From Sedimentisphaerales bacterium (GTDB lineage Bacteria > Planctomycetota > Phycisphaerae > Sedimentisphaerales > Anaerobacaceae): a stretch of 64,000 nt of DNA. Numbering within the stretch: position 1 is the first letter of the stretch; each line of letters starts with the position of its first letter. A model generated the notes under the pieces. It was not told the DNA's origin, did not search any database, and worked only from the letters and a program-made list of their open reading frames with translations. Below are positions 21,039-63,661 of the stretch, in pieces. Location: the NCBI GenBank assembly GCA_050013675.1, contig JBEKEU010000006.1:84477-148476 (forward strand). The letters are read 5' to 3'. Both the position numbers and the translations under genes were made by a program.

Positions 21039-22199
21039 CTATTTCTTTCTTCGCAGCAATGCCGCACCTATGGCTAACAATAGCGCAGAAGCAGGTTCAG
21101 GCGTAAGCAGAAAAGCATGATAATCACCATTCTGATTCAGCATAGTGCCGACAATCCAGCCGTTGTTATTTATGCAATTAGCATAACTTAGTTCCCAGCC
21201 GTATGGAGCTTTAACGAGGGTATTGAGGTCTATATTGCCGCCCTGTCCTGTCGGGTCAAAAATACAGGCATGAGGATATATCTGACCAGGAACTTCAGCC
21301 CAGCCCACAATCTGGCCGAGCTCGTTAATGGCATCTGCACCGCTGTTATCGCCCCCGAGCGTTCCAAGGTCTATATTAGCTCCGAAGCCTGAAGAATCAA
21401 AAAGGCAGGCATGCTTATTTCCTAAACCACGAGGACCGGGGGGGGAAATATAAGAATAACCAACAATCTGGTCGTTATTGTTAATGCAATAAGCCCAACT
21501 CTCCTTGCCGCCAAGTGTTCCAAGGTCAATATTTGCCCCTCCGCCCGTTTCATCGAAAAGACAAGCGTGCTGAGAATAAGCAGGACCAGAATACACTACG
21601 GCACTACCGACTATCTTGCCGGCATCATTAATGGAATATGCATAACTCGTATAATATTGATAAGGTATGTGGTGATTTGCCAAATCTTTATTAGCTCCTC
21701 CGCCTGTATTGTCGAAAATAACGGCACAAGTACCGTTATTTCTATCAAGAGTGGCACCGACAATTATACCGCTGTTGTTTATGGAAGAAGCGCCGCCCCA
21801 ATAACGTTGGGAGTTTAAGGATTTGAGGTCAATATTGGCTCCTCCGCCTGTCGGGTCAAAGAGACACGCAAGAGAAGACACACCATAAGAATCTCCTGCT
21901 GAACCTACAATCTGACCGCTGTTGTTGATAGAAGCAGCAACGCTGTTCGGAAGCCCGCTGATGGTTCCGAGATATATGTTGTTGCCGTTTCCCGTTGAGT
22001 CAAAAAGGCAGGCGTGCTGGTTGCCGGAAAGATTGTAAGCACAGCCAACAATCTGACCGTTGTCATTGATGGAAACTGCCTTACTATCAGTGCCGCCGAG
22101 GGTGCCGAGGTCGATAACCTGGCGATATGCAAAAACGGGGCTGCCCAGAACCAATAGAATTACCGCTGCTGAAAAAAGTGTGTTTTTTCCTCTCATCAC
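21039..22199 (-). CDS. HAF-family extracellular repeat protein with PEP-CTERM anchor
   Basis: 386 aa. Signal peptide, about 7 repeats of the pattern ACLFDxTGGGANIDLGTLGG...INxxGQIVG, and terminal YHAFLLTPEPASALLLAIGAALLRRKK (PEP motif + TM + basic tail). Confidence 0.75.
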   Translation of the reverse strand: MMRGKNTLFSAAVILLVLGSPVFAYRQVIDLGTLGGTDSKAVSINDNGQIVGCAYNLSGNQHACLFDSTGNGNNIYLGTISGLPNSVAASINNSGQIVGSAGDSYGVSSLACLFDPTGGGANIDLKSLNSQRYWGGASSINNSGIIVGATLDRNNGTCAVIFDNTGGGANKDLANHHIPYQYYTSYAYSINDAGKIVGSAVVYSGPAYSQHACLFDETGGGANIDLGTLGGKESWAYCINNNDQIVGYSYISPPGPRGLGNKHACLFDSSGFGANIDLGTLGGDNSGADAINELGQIVGWAEVPGQIYPHACIFDPTGQGGNIDLNTLVKAPYGWELSYANCINNNGWIVGTMLNQNGDYHAFLLTPEPASALLLAIGAALLRRKK

Positions 22200-29660: not shown

Positions 29661-29864
29661 GTGAGTACAGGTACAGTAAAATGGTTTAATGATCAAAAGG
29701 GGTTTGGGTTTATCGTAGCCGACGACGGCGGCCCGGACCTGTTCGTTCACCACTCGGAAATCAAGTCATCCGGGTACTCGAGTTTGAGCGAAGGGCAGAA
29801 GGTTGAGTACGAAGTTGGCCAGGGCAAAAAAGGCCCCTGCGCGACAAACGTAGTTCCAAAATAA
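29661..29864 (+). CDS. cspA: cold-shock protein (CspA family)
   Basis: GTG start at 29661, 8 nt after [24 protein letters not shown] (RNP-1) and DLFVHHS (RNP-2). The longer track ORF from 29544 is an alternative-start artefact. Confidence 0.9.
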
Positions 29865-41172: not shown

Positions 41173-41376
41173 TTAGGAAGGTTTGACGTCTGTCGCTTCC
41201 GGGCCTTTCTTGCCCTGAGCGAGAGTATATTCCACCGCCTGACCTTCTTTTAGCGTCCTGAAACCCTCGGCAGCAATCTTGGAGTGATGAACAAACACAT
41301 CCTCGCTGCCGTCATCGGGAACGATAAAACCAAAACCTTTTTTCTCATTGAACCATTTTACTTTACCTGTAGCCAC
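41173..41376 (-). CDS. cspA: cold-shock protein (CspA family)
   Basis: 67 aa. GTG start 6 nt after [18 protein letters not shown] / DVFVHHS. Confidence 0.9.
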
Positions 41377-50622: not shown

Positions 50623-50809
50623 AAGTCCGTAACTCCTTATAACAATTGACGCTGGGAATATCTTAACAAGTTTTATCTTATGGGGAAATTAAAAGATAAG
50701 GGCGTTAAGATTATCTCTCTTGCCGATTTGGATAAAAAATTCTAACCACGCGGATTACCCCGCCAATTCTATCTTGCAAATATCTCCACATTGCTTACAC
50801 TAATTACCT

Positions 50810-52321
50810 ATGGCTAAGAAACCCGCATCCAATTCAAAGAAACCCCAAACGGCTGCCAAACCCTCCTCGCTCGTCGATACTCGCGTCATTTATTGCGGCG
50901 ATAATCTCGAACAATTGAAAAAACTCCCCGATGAATGTGTTGACCTGATTTATATCGACCCGCCCTTTAACTCAAACCGCAATTATGAGGTCTTCTGGGG
51001 CGAGACAAAGGAAAAACGCGCCTTTGAAGACCGCCACGCCTCAACGCAGGCCTATATCGACTTTATGCGGCCCCGCTGCGTCGAATTGCACCGCGTCCTC
51101 AAGAAAACCGGCTCATTCTACTACCACTGCGACTGGCACGCCTCACACTACGTCAAAATTATGCTCGACCAGATTTTCAGCGAAAACCAGTTCGTTAATG
51201 AAATTGTATGGAAGAGAAGCTCAAATCGCTCTTCAATGAGCAAGATTTTTCGTCGTGCTCACGACAGTATCTTCTTTTATACAAAAAATAGTGATTACCT
51301 TTTCAATATGCAATACAAAGAACTTTCCGAAGGTTCGCTTGAAAACTACAAGCACGAAGATGAAAAAGGAAGATATAGATACGTTCCATTGTTAGTCAGC
51401 GGAAAAAGAAATGGTGAAACAGGAAAGCTGTGGAAAGGTATAGACCCAAATCATTACGGTAAAGCTGGAATGCATTGGGTAACAATTCCTGATAAGCTTG
51501 ATGAATATGATTCAAAAGGTTTAATTTATTGGCCTGAAAAAGGAGGACTCCCAACATTAAAGTATTATTTGGAAGATAATAAAGGCGTTCCGCTATCTGA
51601 TGTTTGGGACGATATAGACCTAATCAGTTCATCTTCTCGTGAATCTTTAGGCTATCCCACACAAAAACCCTTAGCACTTCTTGATAGAATAATTGAGGCT
51701 TCAAGCAATCCAAACGATATTGTCCTCGATGCCTTTTGTGGTTGTGGGACGGCTTTAGTTGCCGCTGAAAATCTCGGCAGGCAGTGGATTGGCATTGATG
51801 TTTCGCCGACTGCCTGCCGTGTTATGGCAAAGCGTCTGCGCGATGTCTGCAAAATGAAAGAGGATGAAACGCTCTGGCGGAATGGTCGGGGCTTCGTTGT
51901 TCGAGACCTGCCCTGGACAATCGAGAAGTTGCGAGAAATCCCGCCGTTTGAGTTTGAGAACTGGGCCGTTATCGCACTGGGTGGCATTCCAAACGTTGCC
52001 AAGGTTGGCGATATGGGTATCGACGGGCGTATCTATCCGGTGTCGGCCACACCGAAAAAAGACAAAGGAGAGCTTGGCTTTATGGATGTTTGGTATCCCA
52101 TTCAGGTCAAGCAGAAAGATAAAGTCGGCAGACCCGATATCGATTCCTTCGAGGCAGTTATGACGCGTGAAGACAGAACAAAGGGGTTCTTTGTTGCCTT
52201 CGACTACTCATCCGATGCTATGAGTGAGATACAGGCGTTCTTCAAAAAGTCCGGCAAAAGCATAATCGCACTTACCGTCAAAGACATCCTCGACGAGCAA
52301 ATCGCCTATAAATTAGCATAA
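50810..52321 (+). CDS. beta-class N6-adenine/N4-cytosine DNA methyltransferase fused to a C-terminal Mrr-like (PD-(D/E)xK) nuclease domain
   Basis: 503 aa. Motif IV IYIDPPFNS lies before motif I DAFCGCGTALVAA (beta order), with YPTQKP. The last ~130 aa carry GDMGIDG ... IQVKQK ... FFVAFDYS, resembling the Mrr_cat core. Confidence 0.85.
   Translation: MAKKPASNSKKPQTAAKPSSLVDTRVIYCGDNLEQLKKLPDECVDLIYIDPPFNSNRNYEVFWGETKEKRAFEDRHASTQAYIDFMRPRCVELHRVLKKTGSFYYHCDWHASHYVKIMLDQIFSENQFVNEIVWKRSSNRSSMSKIFRRAHDSIFFYTKNSDYLFNMQYKELSEGSLENYKHEDEKGRYRYVPLLVSGKRNGETGKLWKGIDPNHYGKAGMHWVTIPDKLDEYDSKGLIYWPEKGGLPTLKYYLEDNKGVPLSDVWDDIDLISSSSRESLGYPTQKPLALLDRIIEASSNPNDIVLDAFCGCGTALVAAENLGRQWIGIDVSPTACRVMAKRLRDVCKMKEDETLWRNGRGFVVRDLPWTIEKLREIPPFEFENWAVIALGGIPNVAKVGDMGIDGRIYPVSATPKKDKGELGFMDVWYPIQVKQKDKVGRPDIDSFEAVMTREDRTKGFFVAFDYSSDAMSEIQAFFKKSGKSIIALTVKDILDEQIAYKLA
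52281..52318 (+). repeat. copy 1 of the 'methyltransferase 3'-end' repeat (functional gene end, ...KDILDEQIAYKLA*)
   Basis: AAGACATCCTCGACGAGCAAATCGCCTATAAATTAGCA. Counted by hand: 31/38 identical to copy 2 and 29/33 identical to copy 3. Confidence 0.9.
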
Positions 52322-52349
52322 GAGCATAAATCTTTAAGGAGAAAGATAT

Positions 52350-52634
52350 ATGACAAGCTCAAAAAAACTTAAAGAAATATTATCTGAGATTGAACAAGCG
52401 CCAATTTCCGCTGGATGTGGTGAGCTTAGTGAAATAATGAAAAAAGCAGGAATACTTACACCTACTGCAGGGATGGATAGCCTAAAAGACAAATGTATCA
52501 GTAGCCTGCATACTGCCATACAAACCGAAAAGATGTTCGAATCGTGTGTTTATGCAAAATGGTCTTGTTTTTGTGCGGCTGTAGCTGCAATTGCATCCTG
52601 CATCAGCGTTCTTTTGTGTTTGTTTCGAGGATAA
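52350..52634 (+). CDS. orphan small tail-anchored Cys-rich protein
   Basis: 94 aa, AT-rich. AAGGAGA RBS 8 nt upstream. C-terminal hydrophobic helix CFCAAVAAIASCISVLLCLF. No known family. Confidence 0.45.
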   Translation: MTSSKKLKEILSEIEQAPISAGCGELSEIMKKAGILTPTAGMDSLKDKCISSLHTAIQTEKMFESCVYAKWSCFCAAVAAIASCISVLLCLFRG

Positions 52635-52667
52635 TAAAATTGAAAAACTTTTATCTCTATAACCACA

Positions 52668-52705
52668 AAGACATCCTCGAATCGCAAATCGCCTACAAAG
52701 TGGCG
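52668..52705 (+). repeat. copy 2 of the 'methyltransferase 3'-end' repeat (relic, still reads ...KDILESQIAYKVA*)
   Basis: AAGACATCCTCGAATCGCAAATCGCCTACAAAGTGGCG followed by TAA. Only ~23 codons are open upstream, so it is a gene-end relic. Confidence 0.85.
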
Positions 52706-52710
52706 TAAAT

Positions 52711-53898
52711 ATGCATGAACTTCCAATCGACAAGAATAAAATAGCAACGCTCTCAAAGAAAGCTAAGCATTACAATATCTTTCCTATTTTCATGCCACGC
52801 TATCTTCCTGATATGAGTCAACCTGAAACGAGTCAACATCCCGTTTCGCAATTATTAGGCGAATTAGTAAAAGATGCTCTTGAGTTTCTTTTAATAGCTA
52901 CAGACAAAGAAGTTGAAGCTTTGCTCGACAGTTTTCCTTCCGGGATAAAAATGCTAGTTGAACATACAAGCGGTCCAAAAGAAGACCGACTAAGAAGAAT
53001 CGCTCTTTATTATATTATCGTAATGGTCGAACGTATTTATTTCTCATTCAAAGACGTAATAAATGAAGATACTAAATCAAGTGTGGTTTTAGAAATATAT
53101 CCTGAACTCAAGAACTCCTTTGATAAAGATGGTTTACTGAGTATCAATGATGATTTTATTTTACATGATGGAGGCATAGAATATAAAAAGCATATGCTCC
53201 ATTATCACCAGTTGCTTCGCAGAGGATTTACCTCGAATCCAAATTTCGATTTTACTGCTCTGTTCCTGCAATATTACCAAAAAACAAAACCAAACAATAG
53301 TTTTAGGGTTGCAATAGACCACCGCCGAATAATGACAAAGGAGTTTTATTCCCAAATTATGGAACTTGATACTTGGTTTGGCCCGGCATTCAATAAGTCC
53401 AAGATAGACGACCCAAACGAAATAGGTCTAACGGTAGTGAAAAGAAACAAGAACTCGTTATTCGAATTGACAAATAGGCTTGATCGCACAGAGTTTTTCT
53501 GGTTTTACCGCGATGGAATAAAAACCTTTGAGGTAGAGGAAATATCAGATCAAGATTACTGTTTCGATAATTACAACTTTAACAGGTATATACATAGTGA
53601 GCGCGATATTGGGAACAAAATCACTCGACACTTAGATGGTGCAGTTAAAGTTTATTTGAAGGATACATACGCTGACAGGAAAAATTCGAATATTCCTAAA
53701 GAAATGAAATGCTATAAAAAAATAAAATTGTGGCGTATAGATGGAGATATCGACCTCGATTCATGGAAAGATCTGATTTCGTTTTTCTACAAGGGCAATG
53801 AAATGATAATTGAATACTTTAATCCAGAAGAATTTAAGCAAATGTTCGAACTTCGAGTCCGTGATTTTGAAGCATGGAAACGTCAGCAAAGAGAGTAA
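52711..53898 (+). CDS. orphan 395-aa protein of unknown function (candidate defence gene)
   Basis: Long uninterrupted ORF in a strongly AT-rich stretch. Starts 2 nt after the relic stop. No motif recognisable by eye. Confidence 0.6.
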   Translation: MHELPIDKNKIATLSKKAKHYNIFPIFMPRYLPDMSQPETSQHPVSQLLGELVKDALEFLLIATDKEVEALLDSFPSGIKMLVEHTSGPKEDRLRRIALYYIIVMVERIYFSFKDVINEDTKSSVVLEIYPELKNSFDKDGLLSINDDFILHDGGIEYKKHMLHYHQLLRRGFTSNPNFDFTALFLQYYQKTKPNNSFRVAIDHRRIMTKEFYSQIMELDTWFGPAFNKSKIDDPNEIGLTVVKRNKNSLFELTNRLDRTEFFWFYRDGIKTFEVEEISDQDYCFDNYNFNRYIHSERDIGNKITRHLDGAVKVYLKDTYADRKNSNIPKEMKCYKKIKLWRIDGDIDLDSWKDLISFFYKGNEMIIEYFNPEEFKQMFELRVRDFEAWKRQQRE

Positions 53899-53955
53899 AT
53901 TTAATTAGGAAATGTAGGATTATTGGAATGCAAAAGGGGGACATTCTGTTTTTTG

Positions 53956-54016
53956 GCGATTCAAAGATAAAACCGGCAGGATAAAAAAGCTTATCGCCAT
54001 AAGGCGATAACGGCAA
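53956..54016 (+). repeat. 61-nt inverted repeat, left copy (contains 8-bp hairpin TTATCGCC-ATAA-GGCGATAA)
   Basis: Reverse complement of 60352-60412 matches at 59/61 positions (hand alignment). Confidence 0.92.
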
Positions 54017-54046
54017 TTCTCTGCGGTAAAAAAGCAGCGTGATTTT

Positions 54047-54092
54047 GCGTTACCTGTCCTGAGCAGTAGTCGAAGGAATCAGCGTCTAAAAA
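54047..54092 (-). repeat. dispersed intergenic element (inverted copy of 57898-57942)
   Basis: GCGTTACCTGTCCTGAGC..TCGAAGGAATC.GCGTC.AAAAA versus the reverse complement of 57898-57942. The 18-nt and 11-nt blocks are identical. Confidence 0.75.
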
Positions 54093-54126
54093 TATCTCTG
54101 CGTTCTCTGCGTCCTCTGCGGTGAAA

Positions 54127-54290
54127 AATCTGCCTGCCCTGCGTAGCCGCTTCGGCGAAGTAGGGTGGTTGTAAATTAGATTGACCAAAGCCGCCTAATC
54201 TGCCTGCCCTGCGACTCGTCCGGCGTAGCGCAAGCGAAGTCGGAAGCCGCTTCGGCGAAGTAGGGTGATTGTAAATTAGATTGACCAAAG
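54127..54290 (+). repeat. tandem direct repeat upstream of the ECF sigma gene
   Basis: The unit AATCTGCCTGCCCTGCG..AGCCGCTTCGGCGAAGTAGGGTG(G/A)TTGTAAATTAGATTGACCAAAG occurs at 54127-54190 and 54197-54290. The second copy carries a 31-nt insertion. Confidence 0.85.
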
Positions 54291-54371
54291 GCATAAAATA
54301 GGTGATTATATAGTGGGCTTTGTTGCGGAGGGGGTCTTGGGGTTGAAGTTTATCTGATAAGGGCCAAACGA

Positions 54372-54971
54372 GTGGCACACAGTCAGCATATAAACGTCGA
54401 AGATACGGTTTTGGTGCAGAAATGGCGTAAGGGCGACCCCAGCGCCATTGAAAAACTCGTCTGCAAATACCAGGGCCGAATCTACAACCTCATATTGAAA
54501 ATCTGCTCAAATCCCAGCGACGCCGCGGAACTAACCCAGGATACGTTTGTCAAAGTAATAGAGAACATTGGTAAGTTCGAGAGCCGCAGCGGCTTTTACA
54601 CCTGGGCGTTCAGAATCGCGGTCAACCTGACGCTGAATTACCGCAAAAGAAAGGCAACGGTCGGGTTTACCTCGCTTGACGCCGAACTGGCTGCGGGCGA
54701 CGAACAGACCAGGCAGGGTCTGGCAGCGATATTATCAGACGATAAGGCCCCTGACCCGGCCCAAATCGCCGAAAACAGGGAACTTTGCGAACTGATACAA
54801 AAAGGAATTCGCAAACTCGATGACGAACACAGAGCAATCATTGTGCTTAGGGATATCGAAGGAATGGATTACGCGCAAATCGCGGAAGTGCTGGGCACAG
54901 AATTGGGCACGGTCAAAAGCCGGCTCAGCAGGGCCCGCGCTGCGTTGAGGCAGATTCTGGAGGCCTTATGA
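54372..54971 (+). CDS. ECF (group IV) RNA polymerase sigma factor
   Basis: 199 aa, GTG start. Region 2 (DAAELTQDTFVKV, FYTWAFRIAVN) and region 4 (DYAQIAEVLGTELGTVKSRLSRAR). Confidence 0.9.
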   Translation: MAHSQHINVEDTVLVQKWRKGDPSAIEKLVCKYQGRIYNLILKICSNPSDAAELTQDTFVKVIENIGKFESRSGFYTWAFRIAVNLTLNYRKRKATVGFTSLDAELAAGDEQTRQGLAAILSDDKAPDPAQIAENRELCELIQKGIRKLDDEHRAIIVLRDIEGMDYAQIAEVLGTELGTVKSRLSRARAALRQILEAL

Positions 54972-55999
54972 ATTTTGAACAAAACCCAAAAATTGAGGAA
55001 TTGCTGAATAGTTACATCGACGACGAGTTGTCGGCTGATGAACGCTCAGAGGTGCAGCGCCTTGTCCGCGAAAACCACACTATCGCACAACGCTTACGCC
55101 AACTCGAAAGATGCAAGGCGATGGTAAGCTCTTTACCCCCCGCCGAACCGCCCGCCCAGGTAGTCGCCGGAATTAAACAACTGCTGCGAAACCATTCGGC
55201 CGGCAAAAGCGAATCTACGCATATCGAAAGCAGGCGAGGAGCAAGGCACCTGTTCGTTCGCCAGGTCATGGCGGCATCAATAATAATTGGGCTTGTGGGC
55301 ATTATGGGCGCAGTAGTGTATAGGATTGTCGGACCAGAGGAAACCGCCATGCCAATCGTCGCGGTGCAGCCGGCACCGACCGTTAAGCCAACTGCGTCGC
55401 CTGTAGCAACGAAACCGGAAGAGACAAAAAAGACGGTTGCCGTCGCCGCTGTTGAGGACGCGACAAGCATAGGCCTGTACTCGCTCCAGTTGCAGACCGC
55501 CGACTTTACCGCGGTTGACGCCTATATAAATAAGCTCCTCGAAGAAAGCCCCTGGCTGCGATACGAAGCGATAAAAGACCAGCCGGGCAAAAGCGCATAC
55601 AGAATTCTTTGCAGCAGAGGCGGCCTTGAGGCAATGATGAGCGATTTGGCGACGGTGTGGCCAAAATTCGATTCGACAACACTGATTGTGCGCACCGATA
55701 ACGTCGGCCAGGATGTCACCGTCGCGTCCGTAAAGCCGGAGCAGGTTGCCGATATTGCCAGACAGGACACAATTGCTAATCGTGTAAAACTTGCGAAGGA
55801 TTTCGCGATGCTAAACAGTGTCGAGCAGATTATGCCCGACGAAAAAATGCTCGCCGCGACGGAGCGGTCGATGCCTGAACTGACAACCATCCCCAAGCCG
55901 GTCCTGACCTCGGGCGATAAAAACGTCGTAACCGCCCCCAAAGGCGCATGGGATCAGGTTCAGGTGGATTTGAATGTCGTCGTCACTGGCCACAAATAG
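54968..55999 (+). CDS. putative anti-sigma factor (single-pass membrane protein)
   Basis: 343 aa. 4-nt overlap with the sigma gene. N-terminal LLNSYIDDELSADERSEV anti-sigma-like helix, and a TM at about residues 95-117. Confidence 0.6.
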   Translation: MNFEQNPKIEELLNSYIDDELSADERSEVQRLVRENHTIAQRLRQLERCKAMVSSLPPAEPPAQVVAGIKQLLRNHSAGKSESTHIESRRGARHLFVRQVMAASIIIGLVGIMGAVVYRIVGPEETAMPIVAVQPAPTVKPTASPVATKPEETKKTVAVAAVEDATSIGLYSLQLQTADFTAVDAYINKLLEESPWLRYEAIKDQPGKSAYRILCSRGGLEAMMSDLATVWPKFDSTTLIVRTDNVGQDVTVASVKPEQVADIARQDTIANRVKLAKDFAMLNSVEQIMPDEKMLAATERSMPELTTIPKPVLTSGDKNVVTAPKGAWDQVQVDLNVVVTGHK

Positions 56000-56206
56000 T
56001 TTAGCCCCCAATCCTGCTTGTCCTCTCGTAGCGAAGCGAAGATCCCCGCATGTCTTTGGCGGGGAGCCAGACCCCTTGGTTTCTTTGTCGGGGGTCATTC
56101 CCGCGACACAAAGCGAAGCGGAGAGCACGGAACGGAAAGCTGGAATCCACAAATAAAAAACCCCCGGATAGCCGGGGGTTCAAACTGCCGTGGGATGTGC
56201 AGTCCG

Positions 56207-57343
56207 TTATTCGAGATTCATTGCCTCAGCGAAGGTAGCCATGTTGTTGGCCCATTTCTGGGCTTCGTTTATGTCGATTTTGTCATCTTTGACTAATCGG
56301 GCAAGGTGTCTTTCCATCGTAATCATCTTCTCATCGTACCTATTCGTGGTCTTGGTCTGGAGTTGCGAATATATCTGCTCGACCTTGCCTGTTCTTATGA
56401 GATTGGCGGTGGCGTAGTTATTGTTAAGAATTTCCATCGCGGCGATTCGACCTTTGCCGTCCTTTCGCGGAATCAGTTTCTGGCTGATGATGTACGCCAG
56501 CCCCAGCGACAGCTGGTTTCGCACCTCGTTTTGCCTGCCGGACGGGAAGTAATCCAGAATGCGCATAATTGTCCCCGCGGTGTCCCTTGTGTGCAGCGTC
56601 GAGAAAACCAAATGCCCCGTCTCAGCCGCCATAAGCGTCATCGCGATTGTCTCCGCGTCGCGCATTTCGCCGACGAGGATTATGTTGGGGTCTTCGCGGA
56701 GCATCGAGCGCAGGCCGTCGATAAACGAATGTACGTCCCTGCCGATTTCTCGCTGCGAGACCAGCGAATGATTCTGCTCAAAAATATATTCAATCGGGTC
56801 TTCGATGGTGATTATCCGGCAGGCGCGTTCTTCGGTTATGCGGTTAATCAGCGATGCGATTGTCGTCGATTTGCCGGCGCCCGTCACACCTGTAACCAGG
56901 ACCAGGCCGTGTTTGCGATTTATAATGTCCTTCCAGATATCATTGGGAAATCCGACCCTCTCCACCGACGGTATATCGGTTGACAGCGCACGAATGGCCG
57001 CGCAGATGCCGTCATTTTCTTTGAAGACGTTGATTCTAAAGTGCGTTGCGGCCAGCCGATATGAGCAATCAACAGTGTGCAGCTCGCGTAATTTGTCTAT
57101 GCTTGCATCCGACAAGAGCGGCAATATTAACTGTTCGGCCATTTCCTGCGTCAACACCGGGCCTTTGAGCTTTTCGATGTCGCCATCGACGCGATAGGCG
57201 GGCGCAGCGCCAACCTTGAGGTGCAGGTCCGAAACCCGCATCGTACCCACCTGCTCAAAATAGTTGAGCATATCCTGGATACTCAACTGCCCCCTATTCT
57301 CGGTGGGATATACGCTTTTTGTGATTTCGCGAACGACCGCCAT
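56207..57343 (-). CDS. pilT: PilT-family type IV pilus retraction ATPase
   Basis: Start trimmed to MAVVREI (57343). Walker A GVTGAGKST, Asp box, Walker B, and GHLVFSTLHT His box. Confidence 0.9.
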   Translation of the reverse strand: MAVVREITKSVYPTENRGQLSIQDMLNYFEQVGTMRVSDLHLKVGAAPAYRVDGDIEKLKGPVLTQEMAEQLILPLLSDASIDKLRELHTVDCSYRLAATHFRINVFKENDGICAAIRALSTDIPSVERVGFPNDIWKDIINRKHGLVLVTGVTGAGKSTTIASLINRITEERACRIITIEDPIEYIFEQNHSLVSQREIGRDVHSFIDGLRSMLREDPNIILVGEMRDAETIAMTLMAAETGHLVFSTLHTRDTAGTIMRILDYFPSGRQNEVRNQLSLGLAYIISQKLIPRKDGKGRIAAMEILNNNYATANLIRTGKVEQIYSQLQTKTTNRYDEKMITMERHLARLVKDDKIDINEAQKWANNMATFAEAMNLE

Positions 57344-57497
57344 TTCCCGCTCCTTGTCAAAAACCATACAAATTATAAGTTCTAAAATCAGGGTTTCAAA
57401 AAGCCATGCACGCACTAATATAGGCAAGGGATGTATCGGCAAAAAATGGGGGTCGGAAAAGCTGAATTTGGCGGTTAGGCGTTGTTTTTTGGGACTG

Positions 57498-57791
57498 TTA
57501 TTTGGCTTTTGCCCCTCGACTCTGCTCGGGACGGGCGAGCCATTCGTTGAGGTTTTTGGCTAAGATTTTGACGTCCTTTTTGGTCATTATGTGGTCGATG
57601 ATTGCGGGCGGTATTTTGAGGTTGACCATCGCTTTTTGCGCACGCTCCCACAGCCGGTCTCGTCTTGCGTCGGTGTCGGCTAAGAACAACTCGCTGACTA
57701 ATTCGCTTAACTTGCCCAGGGCAATGTCGTTGCGGTTGTTGTAGTAGTTCGTTATTATGCTTTTTTGATACGCTGAGTATTCCTGTTTAGC
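57498..57791 (-). CDS. hypothetical protein
   Basis: Start trimmed to MAKQEYSAYQK (57791). 97 aa, helical, no known motif. Confidence 0.45.
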   Translation of the reverse strand, partial: AKQEYSAYQKSIITNYYNNRNDIALGKLSELVSELFLADTDARRDRLWERAQKAMVNLKIPPAIIDHIMTKKDVKILAKNLNEWLARPEQSRGAKAK

Positions 57792-57887
57792 CATATTTGA
57801 GTCCTGCGTTCTGCGTACTTTGCAACTAACTACGAACACTGAACAATGAACTAATTCTGCCTCAAACCGGCGGGAAAATCAAGCCCC

Positions 57888-57942
57888 GGCCAGACGGTTT
57901 TTTTGACGCAGATTCCTTCGACAAGCTCAGGACAGGTAACGC
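57888..57942 (+). repeat. dispersed intergenic element flanking the BrnTA module (downstream side)
   Basis: GGCCAGACGG-T7-GACGCAGATT is repeated directly at 58531-58562. The distal half is an inverted copy of 54047-54092. Confidence 0.8.
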
Positions 57943-57972
57943 GGATTTACGCTGTTTCTTTAAAAGTTTAGA

Positions 57973-58182
57973 TTATGCGACGGTCAGCTTTTTGTGTGAA
58001 TGAGCACACTGACGCAGGTAAAGATTGACTAAGTTTTGATAGGGGATACCGGTCTCTTGTGCCATTTGCTTGAAATACTCAATCACATCGACCCCAAGAC
58101 GCAGCGTAACCTGCTTTTTTAAGGTATTCGCGTAAGGATTTCGCCGGCCTTTAAGTTTTGAAAAATCGTATTCTTTTCTCAT
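57973..58182 (-). CDS. brnA: BrnA-family antitoxin
   Basis: 69 aa. RHH-like VTLRLGVDVIEYFK. 4-nt overlap downstream of brnT. Confidence 0.8.
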   Translation of the reverse strand: MRKEYDFSKLKGRRNPYANTLKKQVTLRLGVDVIEYFKQMAQETGIPYQNLVNLYLRQCAHSHKKLTVA

Positions 58183-58472
58183 AGTTCACCTCTGGCAAAT
58201 TCGCCTTTTTCCTTCGTTGTCGCCTTCCTTGCTGAAATAATCCTGATTTGCCTTCCCTGGCTGTCAAAACAATATGAAACAACCAGCAATCGCAGTCGGC
58301 AGTCAAACCCCAGCATCAGGAACCTGTCTTCATCAGCCGAATGGTCCGGGTCAAAGAACTCTTTGGCATTCTCATCAAAGAATACCGTTGAGGCGTCTTT
58401 GAAGGAAACCCCGTGTTTTTTGAGGTTCTGCGCCGCCTTTCGGTCGTCCCAGGAAAATGTTATCTTTCCCAT
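58179..58472 (-). CDS. brnT: BrnT-family ribonuclease toxin
   Basis: 97 aa. FSWDDRKAAQNLKKHGVSFKDASTVF and IRIISARKATTKE are BrnT (DUF497) signatures. Confidence 0.85.
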   Translation of the reverse strand: MGKITFSWDDRKAAQNLKKHGVSFKDASTVFFDENAKEFFDPDHSADEDRFLMLGFDCRLRLLVVSYCFDSQGRQIRIISARKATTKEKGEFARGEL

Positions 58473-58530
58473 AATTATATTATATTGCTTTCGGCATTAC
58501 GGTTCAAGGAAATTAAAAAAAATCGTCGAT

Positions 58531-58562
58531 GGCCAGACGGTTTTTTGACGCAGATTGCCTCC
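58531..58562 (+). repeat. dispersed intergenic element flanking the BrnTA module (upstream side)
   Basis: GGCCAGACGG-T6-GACGCAGATT, a direct repeat of 57888-57917. Confidence 0.8.
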
Positions 58563-58695
58563 AAACCCTTGCTAATTGCAGGGATTTCGCAATAATTCGA
58601 ATGCAAATGCAATATTATCAGGTTCCCAAGCGTCAGTAGCTGTATTGAAGAAATAAACGGCTTATCATTTTTGGAAATCGCTGATTGCGGAAAGG

Positions 58696-59388
58696 ATGGA
58701 CAATATGAAAATCGATTGCATAAAAAAGACGATGGTAATTTTGGCCGCACTGACTTTTGGTTGTGCCGTAGCTTTTACAGGGTCTGCCCCGGATCCCAAT
58801 TCGCCCGCGCACAGGAATAAAGGTCCGGCTGCACAAAGGCCCGCTCGCGAGTTTTTGCAGGAGCTTAGCGAGAAACTGAATCTCACGGACGCACAGAAGG
58901 CCGCCATCAAACCGATTCTGGCGACCGAGGCCAACGAAATAAAGGCCGTTCACCAGGATAGTTCGCTTTCAACTGAGCAAAAACAAGCGAAAATCAAAGA
59001 AATTCGGGACAGCAGCAGGGAAAAGATAAACGCGCTGCTGACACCCGAGCAGCAGAAAACATTTGCCGAAATGAAGGGTGAAGCGGGCGGCAGAATGCGT
59101 GAAGCATTCCATAACCGGCTGGCTATGATAGCTGAAAAACTGAACCTCACGGACGAACAGAAGACCGCCATCAAACCGATTCTGGCGACCGAGGTCAATG
59201 ATATGACAGCTGTCATGCAGGACAATTCTCTCTCTAAGGAACAAAAGCAAACTAAAATCGCTGGCATTCGGGAGGCCTCAGACACAAAGATAAACGCGCT
59301 GCTGACCCCCGAACAGCAGGCCAAATGGGCCAAACTAAAAGAAAACGCAAAACAGGAGCGTAATAAAAAGGATGCACCGGGCAAATAA
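58696..59388 (+). CDS. periplasmic Spy/CpxP-like (LTxxQ) repeat protein
   Basis: 230 aa. Signal peptide plus two copies of LNLTD.QK.AIKPILATE...QK..KI..IR......KINALLTPEQQ. Start may be ATG at 58705. Confidence 0.6.
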   Translation: MDNMKIDCIKKTMVILAALTFGCAVAFTGSAPDPNSPAHRNKGPAAQRPAREFLQELSEKLNLTDAQKAAIKPILATEANEIKAVHQDSSLSTEQKQAKIKEIRDSSREKINALLTPEQQKTFAEMKGEAGGRMREAFHNRLAMIAEKLNLTDEQKTAIKPILATEVNDMTAVMQDNSLSKEQKQTKIAGIREASDTKINALLTPEQQAKWAKLKENAKQERNKKDAPGK

Positions 59389-59455
59389 GCCCAGTGGCCG
59401 GCAAAAACCTGCTGACAGTTATTACCATACTGTCTGCTGAATACGACATAAAAAA

Positions 59456-59486
59456 GACAGGAGTTGAAAAGCTCCTGTCTTTTTAT
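59456..59486. terminator. bidirectional rho-independent terminator
   Basis: GACAGGAG / CTCCTGTC hairpin flanked by AAAAA and TTTTT, between convergent genes. Confidence 0.65.
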
Positions 59487-59644
59487 TTGTGCGACAAGTG
59501 GCCATGGGGGCAGGATAGCATATAAGTATATGCGTATATACTTATGGAGTGCTCCAACAGTCGAGGTTTTTGAGACACGGATTACCTATTGCGGTAAACA
59601 CTCTTTAGTTTCGCTTACATTACGTCTTCATTGCGGCAGCAGGC

Positions 59645-60040
59645 CTATGCCCACAGGTCTTGTATATCCTCATCGGACTGGAGCCAGTTTGTCGCCTTTT
59701 CAAAATCGGTGAACGCCATAACGGTAAATCTGTCGATATTCGCGCACATCTCCAAAAAAACAGCTTTGTTGAATTGTTCATCATCTCTTGCAATGACGGC
59801 GATCTTACTTCGGAATGCCTCCTTGTGTCGCCCAAGTTCAAGAATCAGCTCATGCAAGTCGGCATGATCCATGTTGCTGTGGACTTCCCGCAAGTCTAAC
59901 AGCAGCTCATGGTCTCCGATTAGATGCTCCATCTTCGCGATTTGACCGAGCACTTTTTTGCTCTCATCAAGGTCTATCTCGCCGGTGGGCTTGGCCTTTA
60001 TGAAATCCTTGGCTTGAATTATCTTATAGTTTACCCGCAT
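59645..60040 (-). CDS. hypothetical protein (possibly STAS-like)
   Basis: Start trimmed to MRVNYKIIQ (60040). The longer track ORF runs through a CACAGAG repeat element. The fold guess is weak. Confidence 0.4.
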   Translation of the reverse strand: MRVNYKIIQAKDFIKAKPTGEIDLDESKKVLGQIAKMEHLIGDHELLLDLREVHSNMDHADLHELILELGRHKEAFRSKIAVIARDDEQFNKAVFLEMCANIDRFTVMAFTDFEKATNWLQSDEDIQDLWA

Positions 60041-60351
60041 TTTCCCGCATCCTGAATAATCCTGCTTTTGTTCCACATATACTCTACTTATGGCACAGGT
60101 TTCCGACGATTTTATCCTGCCATTAAGATAATAGCAATAAGGTGGATTTTTTCGCCACAGAGAACACAGAGAGCACAGGGAATTCATTTTTTTTTAGACG
60201 CCGATTGCGCAGATTCCGCAGAGAATATGTTTAGCCCGGCAACTTTATTGCCGGGTCCCGCCTCCATAACTCAAAACTAAACACTCAACACTCAAAACTA
60301 ACATTTGACACCTCGTTTGTGAAAATCTATAGTGGGTTTGTCAGGAGGATT

Positions 60352-60412
60352 TTGCCGTTATCGCCTTATGGCGATAAGCTTTTTTGACCTGCCGGTTTTA
60401 TCTTTGAATCGC
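60352..60412 (-). repeat. 61-nt inverted repeat, right copy
   Basis: Reverse complement GCGATTCAAAGATAAAACCGGCAGGTCAAAAAAGCTTATCGCCATAAGGCGATAACGGCAA versus 53956-54016: 59/61 identical. Confidence 0.92.
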
Positions 60413-60421
60413 TCCTATGCT

Positions 60422-60910
60422 CTATTTTTGTTTCTGTTTATTGTAATATTTACACACTAAACGATCATAACGATGTATGTAGTCCCTGATATTGTGATAT
60501 TTATTTACAATGACAGCTTTAGCTTCCAGCCGTAACGTCTCATCGTCCGGAACCTGATTGATTTGTTCCAAATTTGCCGCATCTATCCTCCCTCTGAGAA
60601 AGATATTGGCTTTTTGATGCGCTTTAATTTCTACGCCAAATAAATCTATTGCCTTCATAGAAGCACTATGGATATAACCAGTCGCTTCTACTCTATCGAC
60701 CTCGATTGGAAAAGGGTTATTATTTCTAACATCAAGTATAATATTAAACTGCGACTGATACTTATCGCACCAAACTTCCACCGTGCCCTCTTGAGCGGAC
60801 ACAAAAACCTCAATGTTCTTTTTTGTTCTTCCGGGAGAATACAACCAAAAACTAATTATTTTCGGCAAATGAGAGATTAATTTTAATAAGATGTCTATGA
60901 CCCATTCCAT
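60422..60910 (-). CDS. orphan 162-aa protein (N-terminal hydrophobic helix + beta-rich domain)
   Basis: AT-rich ORF immediately downstream of the R-M pair and of repeat copy 3. NNNPFPIEVDRVEATGY loosely resembles LEA_2/WHy-type domains. No firm family. Confidence 0.5.
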   Translation of the reverse strand: MEWVIDILLKLISHLPKIISFWLYSPGRTKKNIEVFVSAQEGTVEVWCDKYQSQFNIILDVRNNNPFPIEVDRVEATGYIHSASMKAIDLFGVEIKAHQKANIFLRGRIDAANLEQINQVPDDETLRLEAKAVIVNKYHNIRDYIHRYDRLVCKYYNKQKQK

Positions 60911-60944
60911 AATTTACTTGCCACAAATAAAATACTAAATTTTG

Positions 60945-60977
60945 TGCCAGTTTGTAGGCAATTTGCTCGTCGAGGAT
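60945..60977 (-). repeat. copy 3 of the 'methyltransferase 3'-end' repeat (relic, inverted orientation)
   Basis: The minus strand reads ATCCTCGACGAGCAAATTGCCTACAAACTGGCA (ILDEQIAYKLA), 29/33 identical to 52286-52318. It overlaps the stop of the endonuclease gene. Confidence 0.85.
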
Positions 60978-61546
60978 TACGAATCGACACCGATAATGAG
61001 AACGGGGATGTCGATGTTTGAAACGCCGCGATGTTCCAAATCCCAAACGAATTGCTCAAAGTATGAAACACCGGTTGACATCTGATCCGCAAACCGCTTC
61101 ACGGGAACTATTTCCACTCCGGCGTCAATGAATCCAAGGTTTTTGAAGATTGTCATCTTGGCACAGACGTTATAGACCATGAAGGCATATTTTCCGAACT
61201 GCACTTCCACACCAAGATTTTCTTTCAAAAAATCCATTTCCCGGAATGCGCCTTTATTGAGCGTTTCCGGCTTATAGCCGGGCCGGTAATACTGTGTGGG
61301 ATACTGGCACGGAACTTTTTGACAGCTCCAGCCCGATGCAAAAAACTTCTCTTTGAATTTTTTATTGAGAGCAACAGGACTAAAAAGACGCCGACCTCGC
61401 ATCGTCTTTTCCTTACTGATTTTCTTCATACAAGCGGAACTGTCAACCTGCCGGATTACTTCATAAACCTCTTTGACTAATTTTGAGTGGTGTTTAGCGA
61501 GATACGCGTTACCCTTATTGAATGAATATTCTCCGGCAATAATCAC
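60977..61546 (-). CDS. putative type II restriction endonuclease, BglII/BstYI-like
   Basis: 189 aa. 4-nt overlap with the upstream methyltransferase. MDFLKENLGVEVQFGK gives D-X8-E-X-Q, the spacing of the BglII catalytic residues (D84, E93, Q95). Confidence 0.6.
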   Translation of the reverse strand: MIIAGEYSFNKGNAYLAKHHSKLVKEVYEVIRQVDSSACMKKISKEKTMRGRRLFSPVALNKKFKEKFFASGWSCQKVPCQYPTQYYRPGYKPETLNKGAFREMDFLKENLGVEVQFGKYAFMVYNVCAKMTIFKNLGFIDAGVEIVPVKRFADQMSTGVSYFEQFVWDLEHRGVSNIDIPVLIIGVDS

Positions 61547-62529
61547 AGAAGGGTTTCCTCCTTATCCCAAATTGCAGGACGCCGGCTTACCTTTTCTCGC
61601 CCTGTTGGCGTAAAAACCGGCTTGCCCAAGGGACGTGTCTTTAACGTTCCTTCAGCCAGCATCTGGAGACGTTTTCGGCATATATCCAGATATTTTTCTT
61701 CGCGGTCGCACCCGACAGCACGCCGATTATGTTTCGCCGCCGCGATGAGGGTTGATCCGACGCCGGCATACGGGTCGTAAATCCAGTCGTCCTCTTTGGT
61801 CAAAGCCAGAACACAACGCTCAACCAATTCCACGGGAAACTGGCAGGGATGGATAGTTTTTTCCGGATGATTCGCTTTGACGTTCGGGATGTCCCATATC
61901 AGACGCTCCCAGTCTTCAGCAACAATCTTCCAAACATCGGAAGGATTCTTGCCTAAAGGATTACCCGAAGGAAATCCTTTTTTGTCACCCTTGAAATGAC
62001 ATTTCCCAGGATACTTGGCGGGCACCCTTACCGGATCTAAGTTAAAAATATAATTATCCGACTTGGTAAACCAAAGGATAGTTTCATACCGACCGGAAAA
62101 ACGCAAACTGCAATGTAATCCATGCTCGAAATGCCAGATAATTCGATTGCGAAGTTGCAATCCCTTCGACTTGAACAAATCATAGAAATAAATATCAAGC
62201 GGAAATACTTCGCCGTTTTCAACGTAGTTGCCCACCTGCCAGCAAATGCTCCCGTCATGCTTTAGGCAACGCGCAAGTTCGCCTATTAATGGTTCCTGTT
62301 GAGCGAGGTATTCCTTCAGCGACGATTTGTGCTCATATTCCTTCCCGATGTTATAGGGAGGCGAGGTAATGATTAGCGAAAAGAAATCTTTTGGAAGAGA
62401 ACTCGCAAAAGCCAAAGCATCATCACAGGCCATCACGAGATTTGCCTCAGGCGTGAATTTATCAGATATTTCAAAGCTGCCGCCAAATAGCGACCTCATC
62501 CGTGAACTGGTTCTATATTCCCTTATCAT
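61543..62529 (-). CDS. beta-class DNA methyltransferase (N4-cytosine/N6-adenine, SPPY type)
   Basis: 328 aa. IITSPPYNIG (motif IV) precedes DPYAGVGSTLIAA (motif I). Confidence 0.88.
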   Translation of the reverse strand: MIREYRTSSRMRSLFGGSFEISDKFTPEANLVMACDDALAFASSLPKDFFSLIITSPPYNIGKEYEHKSSLKEYLAQQEPLIGELARCLKHDGSICWQVGNYVENGEVFPLDIYFYDLFKSKGLQLRNRIIWHFEHGLHCSLRFSGRYETILWFTKSDNYIFNLDPVRVPAKYPGKCHFKGDKKGFPSGNPLGKNPSDVWKIVAEDWERLIWDIPNVKANHPEKTIHPCQFPVELVERCVLALTKEDDWIYDPYAGVGSTLIAAAKHNRRAVGCDREEKYLDICRKRLQMLAEGTLKTRPLGKPVFTPTGREKVSRRPAIWDKEETLL

Positions 62530-63038
62530 AACTGTTAGTTTAAATCATGCTCGATAATTTGCAAGAGAACATTCGTAACTGCAAATCATAGGAAAAGCTT
62601 TTCTAACGAGGCCTGTCCCAGTTTTTAATGTAAAAACAAGGATTATTGCGTTTTTGAGGCCATTTTGGGCCTATTTTTTGCATGTTTTTCAGGCCGACCT
62701 TTCGCTGTAACCTTTTGCGGAATAAGGACATAAAACAGGACTAAAAAAGTCGTATAAAACAACTGTATCAAACATTTGTATGATACATTTGTTCACCAAA
62801 AGCGCGCAAGTGTTTTTTGGCAAATCCGGGAAATTCTGAAAATTTTTTTACTCCTTATACCATAACAAGTTAAGTGCATTTCGAGGCATCCCCAAAATCG
62901 GATTTTTCGTCAAAAGCGCGCAAGTTCGCGCCAATTATAGAGGGACGCGCGAAGCGGGTCGCTTCGCGAGAAAGTAGAAAGTTGAGCAGGAGAACAGGAG
63001 AAAGGGAATTTAAGATTTGAGATTTGAAAGTAACCCAC

Positions 63039-63085: not shown

Positions 63086-63661
63086 ATGTCAAGTATCACA
63101 ATCAAAGTTCCAAACTGGTTAGACCGTATTTGCGCGTGGCCGGTGGTGGCTTATCGGCAATTGAAGTTCGGCTACCCATTTCGCAAAATTCCTCTCGGCG
63201 AAGGCAGATTCACCCTTGTTGACCCCGCGCTCTTTTATCGGCTCAATATCTTCCAGTGGTACGCAGATGGAAAGAGCGAGAAAATCTATGCCGTCAGGAA
63301 TATAATATCGGCTAATGAAAATTCAAGAACTATGCGATTACACAGGGAAATTATGAATGTTCCACCAGGCATTTTGGTGGACCATAGAAACGGCGACACA
63401 TTAGACAATAGAAGAACCAATCTGCGTTTGGCAACTTGTTCACAGAATTCCTGTAACAGACAAAAGACAAAATCAAAAACCTCTTCTCGATTTATCGGCG
63501 TTTCTTTTGACAAACACAAGGTCGTGTGGACTGCCTATATCAGTTTTCACAGGAAAAGAATATGGTTAGGGTGTTTCAAAACCGAAATCGCAGCCGCGAA
63601 GGCGCATGATGAGGCGGCGAAAAAGTATCACGATGAGTTCGCCCGGCTCAACTTTGTTTAG
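63086..63661 (+). CDS. HNH endonuclease with AP2/ERF-type DNA-binding domain (homing-endonuclease-like)
   Basis: 191 aa. VDHRNGDTLDNRRTNLRLATCSQNSCN (HNH) followed by SRFIGVSFDKHKVVWTAYISFHRKRIWLGCFKTEIAAAKAHDEAAKKYHDEFARLNF (AP2). GGGAGG RBS. Confidence 0.85.
   Translation: MSSITIKVPNWLDRICAWPVVAYRQLKFGYPFRKIPLGEGRFTLVDPALFYRLNIFQWYADGKSEKIYAVRNIISANENSRTMRLHREIMNVPPGILVDHRNGDTLDNRRTNLRLATCSQNSCNRQKTKSKTSSRFIGVSFDKHKVVWTAYISFHRKRIWLGCFKTEIAAAKAHDEAAKKYHDEFARLNFV

Follow-up and report, generated by a model that had tools for sequence, protein, structure and literature searches.

The window analysed here, a stretch of 64,000 nucleotides (nt) from a Sedimentisphaerales bacterium (assembly GCA_050013675.1, contig JBEKEU010000006.1, positions 84,477 to 148,476), contains three copies of a short sequence that forms the 3' end of a gene fusing a DNA methyltransferase to an Mrr-type nuclease (methylase-Mrr). 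Two of the copies are orphans, stubs of such a promiscuous methylase-Mrr gene, which probably anchors a modular slot for other genes, and the slot would be rearranged by general recombination without a dedicated integrase. All protein functions given below are predicted, the sequences compared are mainly contigs of metagenome-assembled genomes (MAGs), and our census of stubs is small and skewed by the way in which loci were retrieved. The three copies are the following:

52279-52321, + strand: tail copy 1, the true 3' end of the 503-residue (503-aa) gene, reading KDILDEQIAYKLA-stop.
52666-52708, + strand: stub 2, an orphan copy, reading KDILESQIAYKVA-stop.
60942-60977, - strand: stub 3, an orphan copy, the last 36 nt of a methylase-Mrr gene that was replaced, with its stop mutated to CAA.

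A preliminary description of this DNA had reported three copies of the methyltransferase gene end, and all of them were found. A repeat search of the window paired 52279-52321 with 52666-52708 as a direct repeat (43 nt, 84%) and 52286-52321 with 60942-60977 as an inverted repeat (36 nt, 86% complementary). Both direct copies are matched by a degenerate 33-mer, for which 100 shuffles gave an expectation of 0.00. Chance or a generic repeat as the origin of the motif was ruled out by the shuffles and by searches of related loci. As had been claimed, copy 1 is the genuine end of the 503-aa gene, which spans 50810-52321, and the inverted copy sits at the stop of the BglII-like nuclease gene, where it begins at the final A of the TAA. 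Two details changed: the frame of copy 2 is open for 67 codons instead of about 23, with methylase homology beginning just 13 codons before the stop, and the open reading frames (ORFs) downstream of copies 1, 2 and 3 start after 28, 2 and 31 nt instead of 30-70 nt. In the methylase frame, the changes among the three copies are mainly synonymous or conservative, and the copies therefore descend from different functional alleles and not from drift in place. The layout of the window was also present in at least five independent assemblies (L001, L002, L003, L101 and L110), and it is therefore not an assembly artefact or a chimera.

The copies lie in two islands of low GC content (0.35-0.45 against a background of about 0.52) that are inverted around a 6.3-kb core:

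Left island, + strand: promoter, methylase-Mrr, tail, orf94, stub, orf395, element B.
Right island, - strand: HNH-AP2 (divergent), promoter, M.BglII-like, R.BglII-like, stub, orf162, element B.

The left island opens with the anchor gene of the system:

50759-50809, + strand: methylase-Mrr promoter and short leader, CTTGCAAAT...TTACACTAATTACCT-ATG, the left edge of DNA homology with unrelated genomes.
50810-52321, + strand: methylase-Mrr gene, 503 aa, a beta-class N4/N6 methyltransferase with a C-terminal Mrr-type nuclease domain (Pfam).

A very large family of methyltransferase-Mrr fusions ends almost invariably in KDILDEQIAYKLA-stop. The protein matches the Pfam domains N6_N4_Mtase (3e-52) and Mrr_cat (3.5e-5), and more than 8000 homologues pass an E value of 0.001, with identities quoted as 64-92%. 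The best 120 homologues are 69-100% identical, and all 120 of them end in K[DE]IL[DE]EQIA.KL[AVT]. The preliminary description had proposed looking for methyltransferase-Mrr genes elsewhere with the same ending; our genome scan yielded 80 loci, 76 of which share it. These loci belong to Planctomycetota (mostly MAGs of Sedimentisphaerales and Phycisphaerae), Verrucomicrobia, Acidobacteria, Actinomycetes, Elusimicrobia and others, and some genomes carry several copies. The gene is a mosaic: the N-terminal ~125 aa and the C-terminal ~220 aa are conserved in both protein and DNA, and genomes with unrelated flanks share as much as 93% nt identity there. Homology with L004, L005, L009, L010 and L011 starts 43-52 nt 5' of the ATG and takes in a predicted promoter that reads TTGCAA-N17-TAAACT in the window. 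The DNA homology is split into 50760-51214 and 51650-52321; the middle (~51215-51650) cannot be aligned and may be a swappable target-recognition part.

The origin of stub 2 can be traced through the gene behind it:

52711-53898, + strand: orf395, member of a widespread uncharacterised family and cargo here, starting 2 nt after the stop of stub 2.

Relatives of orf395 have an intact 502-aa methylase-Mrr gene 2 nt upstream. Positions 52666-53897 of the window are colinear with a methylase 3' end followed by an orf395 homologue in L111/L113 (91% nt identity), L115/L116 (85%) and L117-L120 (82%), and the homology of L111, L113, L115 and L117 to the window begins exactly at 52666 and stops at the orf395 stop. 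Because the homology starts at the first base of the stub and the methylase is intact in the relatives, stub 2 evidently consists of the final 43 nt of the native upstream neighbour of orf395, a methylase. The body of that methylase was lost at a junction behind the upstream unit of methylase and orf94. Element B was absent from these relatives. The orf395 family comprises 235 homologues across cyanobacteria, Acidobacteria, Poribacteria and others, with about 37 invariant residues, many of them His, Asp, Glu, Arg or Lys. Searches of orf395 gave no match in Pfam or PADLOC and no sequence match in the PDB. Its AlphaFold model is confident (predicted local distance difference test, pLDDT, 92; predicted template modelling score, pTM, 0.88), and a Foldseek search with it returned no match in the PDB or BFVD. 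The distant homologues are solitary, often beside toxin-antitoxin genes, which indicates that orf395 is cargo and rules it out as an obligate partner or subunit of the methylase.

A second junction of the left island is recorded by the small gene between copies 1 and 2:

52350-52634, + strand: orf94, between the arms of the 43-nt direct repeat; its product is small and hydrophobic over a C-terminal stretch.

No Pfam match was found for orf94. The window, L011 and L087/L090 all have its cassette (93-97% aa identity), each behind a methylase allele of its own, and the junction of the cassette into the stub is identical in all three: ...CTCTATAACCA, then C or T, then AAAGACATCCTCGA. The remainder differs:

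Window: right part of the stub GAATCG...GTGGCGTAA; cargo orf395.
L011: right part of the stub nearly identical to the tail of L011 itself; cargo orf201.
L087: right part of the stub truncated after GCCTAT; cargo a 200-aa and a 229-aa gene.

Since the right part of the stub and the downstream cargo differ in each genome, crossovers lie inside the 43-nt stub. The orf94 segment is a 344-bp insert between 43-bp duplications and holds no mobility gene. It thus has the insert size (<20 kb), the duplication length (>30 bp) and the single-copy target of an insertion with long target duplication; the single-copy comparison comes from relatives that carry methylase, tail and orf395 without the orf94 insert, though with another methylase allele. 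The insert encodes orf94 only and not the R and M genes that Furuta and colleagues specify for such insertions.

In the right island, stub 3 points to the replacement of a whole gene:

60977-61546, - strand: BglII-like restriction endonuclease (Pfam Endonuc-BglII, 3.5e-20).
61543-62529, - strand: N4/N6 DNA methyltransferase, partner of the BglII-like enzyme (Pfam N6_N4_Mtase, 3e-50).
62530-62570, - strand: methylase-Mrr-family promoter and leader, L006/L014 allele, before the BglII-type methylase (blastn).
60422-60910, - strand: orf162, cargo gene of a small family, with a weak LEA_2 Pfam match only.
63086-63661, + strand: HNH-AP2 endonuclease gene, divergent from the restriction-modification (R-M) slot (Pfam HNH_3 and AP2).

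The endonuclease and methyltransferase genes overlap and have the layout of a Type II R-M system, with predicted activity. In a blastn search, the 31-35 nt that precede the start codon of M.BglII aligned with the promoter of the methylase-Mrr genes in L006 and L014, at an identical offset from the ATG (CTTGCAAATTATCGAG...TTAAACTAA). The tails of L005, L006, L010 and L011 share 94-97% identity with stub 3. The promoter is thus retained 5' of M.BglII and the tail 3' of R.BglII, as in R-M allelic substitution, and this pairing of promoter and stub indicates that the BglII-type pair replaced a methylase-Mrr ORF from the ATG to 36 nt before the stop. In L009, the same HNH-AP2 gene and intergenic flank precede a different (N6_Mtase) methylase. 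The order HNH-AP2, M.BglII, R.BglII, orf160 also occurs in contig ERZ1426817 (gene calls only), and the DNA of L123 has the same junction of BglII, stub, orf160 and B, with the TAA of the stub kept. Identity to L123 is 96.9% for the BglII 3' end, 91.7% for the stub, 72% for the spacer, 81% for orf162, 92% for B and 50% beyond B. This mosaic profile suggests that segments of different history meet at the stub and that the shared module ends at B. Homologues of HNH-AP2 lie near methylase or B loci in L005, L009, L010, L014, L019, L042, L084, L086, L089, L094, L096, L099 and the ERZ1426817 contig. The intergenic region between HNH-AP2 and the BglII pair contains a 23-nt direct repeat (TTGTTCACCAAAAGCGCGCAAGT-like, at 62789-62925) and is 84% conserved with its equivalent in L009.

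Stubs also accompany the relatives of orf162, for which 16 homologues were found and a low-confidence model was obtained (pLDDT 68, too uncertain for a structure search). A methylase 3' stub stands 5' of every homologue with readable upstream DNA (L123, L124, L125/L127 and L128). Its length is 36 nt in L123 and ~100 nt in L128, which has in addition a second stub with a DUF4238 gene behind it. In L124 the start of the contig cuts into the stub, of which at least 32 nt are present, and in L125/L127 a stub of ~95 nt is joined to the core of B. A rival reading is that stubs are kept as functional cis elements of the cargo, providing an upstream stop codon, ribosome standby or translation coupling, or RNA stability; selection would then act against their deletion, and the repeat would be a regulatory leader and not a recombination feature. 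In agreement with such a role, the stub is no less conserved relative to L123 than the gene (92% against 81% nt identity), the stub frames are open, the stop is kept in most copies, and orf395 follows its stub by the same 2 nt as it follows the intact methylase in relatives. However, the stop is lost in stub 3 of the window and in L128 with the downstream ORF intact, the 31 nt between orf162 and its stub are too many for coupling, L087 has a truncated stub, and the excess conservation derives from 36 nt only and is not significant. We regard this role as rather improbable as the explanation of the repeat; it is compatible with the stubs being remnants of a methylase-Mrr anchor.

Both islands are closed by the non-coding element B:

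53925-54016, + strand: element B (B itself 53955-54016) with degenerate pre-B, the distal boundary that closes the left slot.
60352-60413, - strand: second copy of element B, closing the right-hand slot.

The core of B at 53955-53979 is GGCGATTCAAAGATAAAACCGGCAG; the hairpin behind it looks like a terminator when read on the - strand, opposite to B, with a fold z-score of -2.5 to -2.7. The two copies form an inverted repeat of 61 nt with 97% identity. The consensus consists of a pre-B AAAAAGGGGTCAGGAGCCTTTTTTCAGG, a core GCGATTCAAAGAYAAAACCGGCAG and an often present hairpin GCTTATCGCCATAAGGCGATAAC, after which a T-run is found on the opposite strand. Across 1.3 Mb of related loci, B occurs only 3' of methylase tails and on the same strand. 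A metagenome scan added 17 further B loci; where the upstream DNA is long enough, a tail or stub in most cases precedes B by 0.6-2.8 kb. B also closes a methylase-less islet in L100 (PIN, SDH protease, an 84-aa ORF and B); this islet lies just past the right end of the window, and its B, a third copy (L100:4747), is ~3.4 kb beyond that end. No Rfam match was obtained for B or the repeats, and neither inverted B nor any other terminal repeat was found within 5 mismatches at the left edge of the islands. B and the tail were not found in viral contigs, which argues against a phage origin. The B core resembles the FFKKTGK-coding stretch of the methylase and the junction of the mini-genes described below, with significance in some alleles only (z 3-7). 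In L125, where the B core runs directly into a methylase 3' end and tail, the similarity is stronger (z 9-11). These similarities are suggestive of a shared ancestry between B and the FFKKTGK-coding stretch. Motifs similar to aatcagtgtaaatc / gcgtctaaaaa occur after B or tails in other genomes. Behind the left B, the intergenic region 54019-54300 is dense in short repeats, with CTCTGCG-type reiterations and a 46-nt unit present at 54145-54190 and 54245-54290 with 98% identity; part of the region, 54027-54092, recurs inverted at 57899-57962.

The inverted arrangement of tail and B could suggest a shufflon-like switch, in which the inverted copies flip a segment of 6.3-8.6 kb and re-pair cargo with the two R-M systems. 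The 36-nt (86%) and 61-nt (97%) inverted repeats do bracket the core segment. However, both junctions show a single orientation in all independent contigs, no invertase gene is present, the segment holds housekeeping-type genes (ECF sigma factor, anti-sigma factor, PilT-like ATPase, BrnTA), and the modules are direct in other genomes (L009, and L100 with two direct B copies). With no alternative junction in any contig, inversion between the copies is disfavoured and we judge it highly implausible. The core encodes an LTXXQ protein in addition to these genes; its BrnT/BrnA toxin-antitoxin pair lies at 57973-58472 (- strand), and the LTXXQ-family gene (58696-59388) has an internal 264-nt duplication at 58870-59339 with 78-80% identity.

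The methylase-Mrr anchor and B delimit a slot whose content varies widely. Variable cargo between conserved boundaries had been proposed as a check, and at least 13 unrelated gene sets were found between tail and B in related genomes. The layout in Sedimentisphaerales-type Planctomycetota is a conserved promoter, one or more R-M genes, the tail, one or more co-oriented cargo genes and B, the slot measuring 0.5-2.8 kb with 1-3 genes. Cargo between tail and B has a GC content of 0.34-0.48, mostly 0.34-0.42. In nearly all loci the cargo ORFs have the orientation of the methylase. In the window 2-31 nt separate them from the tail or stub, and elsewhere they begin up to 200 nt behind the tail; they are arranged like integron cassettes behind one promoter, their promoterless state being putative. 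Across loci of the whole family, 34 first-downstream co-oriented genes fall into 31 clusters, and many methylase loci have variable cargo without B. Domains found in the cargo include RhuM, Abi_C/HEPN, AbiTii, HEPN_AbiU2, AbiJ_NTD4, Hypoth_Ymh, PIN alone or with an SDH protease, Schlafen AlbA_2, Fic, FRG and GIY-YIG with RAMA, and PADLOC families include PDC-S14, PDC-S15, PDC-S50, PDC-M68A, SduA and a CBASS-type endonuclease effector. Searches of the Pfam and PADLOC type gave no match to defence families for orf94, orf395 and orf162 of the window. Variable content enriched in known defence families and enclosed by conserved boundaries characterises the slot, to judge by these domain assignments, as a modular hotspot of mostly defence-type genes.

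Scars of several kinds were detected in other genomes. Collapsed mini-genes in L084 and L095/L098 consist of the promoter, ~11 N-terminal and ~23 C-terminal codons joined at a short repeat, TTCAAAGAAAACC / TTCAAAAAAACCGG. In L086, 47 N-terminal codons are followed by a 4-codon filler and the last 13 codons. In L091, a full gene is preceded by an N-terminal relic with its end at CTCGAACAATT, and L064 has a methylase relic of ~200 nt. L019 is a complete Sedimentisphaerales chromosome; at 11509-12882 it has copies of the methylase 3' end on both sides of an IS200-like Y1 transposase gene, the duplication covering at least 141 nt of that end and ~40 nt downstream. In L087, the 229-aa gene lies between 15-nt duplications of pre-B. 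Stub lengths are therefore diverse: ~30, 36, 43, 66-100, at least 141 and ~200 nt. The mini-genes are located at L084:60-216 (an in-frame 34-codon ORF), L095:4150-4299 and L086:1735-1973. Junctions are often found at similar A-rich words, namely ATTCAAAGAAACC (N-terminus), TTCAAAAAAACCGG (C-terminus), GTCAAAGACATCC (tail start) and ATTCAAAGATAAAACC (B core). Other junctions lie at CCTCGA(A/C), in the N-terminal DNLEQL and the C-terminal DILDEQI codons. Microhomology and nuclease preference are candidate causes of these words, which occur at the tail, N-terminus and B of the window and in L084, L086, L091 and L125.

The preliminary description had offered two readings of the repeat, an att-like or integron-type site and a scar of serial replacement. 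Stubs 2 and 3 uphold the scar, and the att-like site found no support in an integrase or an attC-like fold. Pfam scans of all sizeable ORFs found no integrase in 48-64 kb, as had been claimed for the island, and none of the islands examined has a tyrosine or serine recombinase gene inside it or beside it. The sole Phage_integrase gene of the window is the XerC/D-like gene previously placed at 13.2 kb, which maps to 13234-14172 (- strand), 37 kb away. The three tail copies fold no better than shuffled sequences on either strand (z -0.1 to -1.2), which rules out an attC-like or other secondary structure. Synonymous sites of the tail show no excess conservation across 76 loci (0.46 for the last 13 codons against 0.455 and 0.442 further upstream), and in the 39 closest loci the tail is unremarkable (rank 43 of 212 windows); DNA-level selection on the tail was rejected on these grounds. 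The absence of an integrase, of an attC-like hairpin and of extra tail conservation, together with stub lengths of ~30-200 nt, makes a dedicated att system less probable than recombination scars within a modular defence hotspot.

We consider it likely that general recombination at an anchoring methylase-Mrr gene is the best explanation of the three copies. The promoter, the N-terminus, the C-terminus with its tail, and B would serve as portable homology at which incoming DNA recombines by ordinary homologous or short-homology recombination. The other end of the incoming DNA would often be joined illegitimately or by microhomology, and redundant methylase bodies would later be deleted. Through such exchange and deletion, cargo would keep the stub of its former neighbour and arrays of tail, cargo, stub and cargo would grow. 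No dedicated integrase would be required, and stubs may persist as the stop and translation-start context of the cargo.

Several observations weigh against this explanation. Three independent stubs start within 7 nt of each other, at -43 (orf94 lineage), -43 (L086) and -36 (BglII), and several other breakpoints lie at or near CCTCGA or TCAAAGA motifs; this clustering exceeds what random illegitimate joining predicts. Boundary duplications flank two cassettes (43 nt of tail for orf94, 15 nt of pre-B for the L087 229-aa gene), which is the footprint of site-directed insertion. The whole module from promoter to B is found in unrelated genomic contexts, so homologous recombination alone cannot account for its reaching new loci. 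An HNH-AP2 nuclease gene is repeatedly adjacent. Finally, no empty site or polymorphic junction was found: every contig that encodes an identical YjbQ or sigma protein and reaches the island has this same island.

These observations could instead reflect a dedicated cassette system, in which tail and B are halves of an attachment site derived from the methylase 3' end and promoterless cassettes move in and out site-specifically by means of an enzyme unlike an integrase, for instance HNH-AP2 acting through break and repair. In addition to the boundary duplications and the clustered stub starts, such a system would fit the extended B, which ends ..AAAATCCTC, where stub 3 begins, the contiguity of the L125 B core with a methylase 3' end and tail, the shared orientation of all cargo behind one promoter, and the recurrence of HNH-AP2 beside slots. 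HNH-AP2, with its HNH_3 and AP2 architecture and recurrent adjacency, may be a candidate free-standing homing endonuclease that drives the mobility of flanking markers; its target site and its cleavage of an endonuclease-less allele are putative. However, the islands examined have no tyrosine or serine recombinase, the tail has neither hairpin potential nor excess synonymous conservation, stubs of 66-200 nt also occur, an internal truncation affects the L087 stub, many methylase loci have variable cargo without B, and HNH-AP2 stands at variable distance and orientation and is missing from many loci. We therefore consider a dedicated system unlikely. Its more specific form, in which the tail end and B make up a composite site of an integrase-less cassette system, with exchange of small defence genes behind a mobile R-M gene at preferred nucleotides (~-43/-36 and pre-B) that HNH-AP2 breaks might trigger, appears slightly less likely still.

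Recombination scars at a methylase-Mrr anchor can be compared with several known systems. Rearrangements linked to R-M systems have been described as insertion with long target duplication, R-M allelic substitution and replacement of recognition domains (Furuta, Abe & Kobayashi 2010, PMC2853133). All three have counterparts here: an insert between target direct repeats of >30 bp without a mobility gene (orf94, 43 bp), one R-M system swapped for another between flanks (the BglII pair for methylase-Mrr), and methylases with conserved ends and a swapped middle. In contrast to the described cases, what is duplicated as the target is the R-M gene's own coding 3' end, the inserted gene is small and not of the R-M type, the old ORF leaves its promoter and final 36 nt in place on substitution, and an architecture of anchor, stub and B repeats over many genomes with defence cargo.

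The slot as a whole is closer to defence hotspots. P2/P4 prophages provide such hotspots, and the core defence hotspots of Pseudomonas aeruginosa are reportedly an example of defence islands anchored by conserved flanking genes. The slot shares with them a hypervariable, low-GC, defence-rich cargo between conserved boundaries that is presumably turned over by recombination in the flanks. It differs in being tiny, in having a mobile R-M gene and not a core or phage gene as its proximal flank and a non-coding element of 55-95 nt as its distal flank, and in occurring as a whole unit in unrelated genomic contexts. Integron arrays are likewise made of co-oriented, promoterless, unrelated short cassettes behind one promoter, with imperfect copies of one sequence between them; however, there is no IntI here, the repeat is a gene fragment of variable length and not an attC-type imperfect palindrome, and only 1-3 cassettes are present. 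Without IntI and an attC fold, the slot does not qualify as an integron.

Integrative elements that target gene 3' ends, such as tRNA- or tmRNA-targeting islands, supply a surrogate end, and as in the window, the target 3' end is duplicated on both sides of the insert and the upstream gene is intact. The insert here is without an integrase, the lengths and boundaries of the repeats vary (15, 30, 43, at least 141 and ~200 nt), and the displaced end comes from another allele and arrived with downstream cargo; with neither an integrase nor a fixed core, the slot falls outside this class too. Abortive-infection genes are known to be embedded in R-M loci, as with prrC in the EcoprrI hsd locus and RhuM or Abi genes in Type I operons. 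Genes of the Abi, HEPN and RhuM types are predicted to be co-transcribed with an R-M enzyme here too. The anchor is however a single-polypeptide methylase-Mrr fusion, its coupling to the cargo is putative, and relatives of orf395 are also solitary. Single events thus match known classes of R-M rearrangement, and the overall picture matches defence hotspots with conserved flanks. What is unusual is the coding end of a mobile R-M gene as proximal flank with fragments that travel with the cargo, a short non-coding B that closes the slot, and a unit from promoter to B in unrelated contexts.

Two other repeats of the window lie outside the islands. An inverted repeat of 95 nt (80% complementary) pairs 29661-29755 with 41282-41376, its arms 11.5 kb apart, and seven tandem copies with a period of ~150 nt and 61-78% identity at 21147-22084 probably encode a repeat-domain protein.

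The stubs constitute a readable history of R-M turnover, recording the replacement of a whole ORF with the promoter and the last 12 codons kept, the movement of cargo together with the stub of a former neighbour, and collapsed mini-genes. Should a dedicated mechanism lie behind the clustered breakpoints, it would be a new integrase-free way of assembling gene cassettes, and a composite site, if true, would be a functional analogue of the integron built from a gene fragment. The pattern of a methylase-Mrr tail followed by B is a landmark for uncharacterised defence candidates in the poorly studied Planctomycetota and in other soil and peat bacteria, and orf395, with its confident predicted fold and no structural relative found in the PDB or BFVD, is one such candidate.

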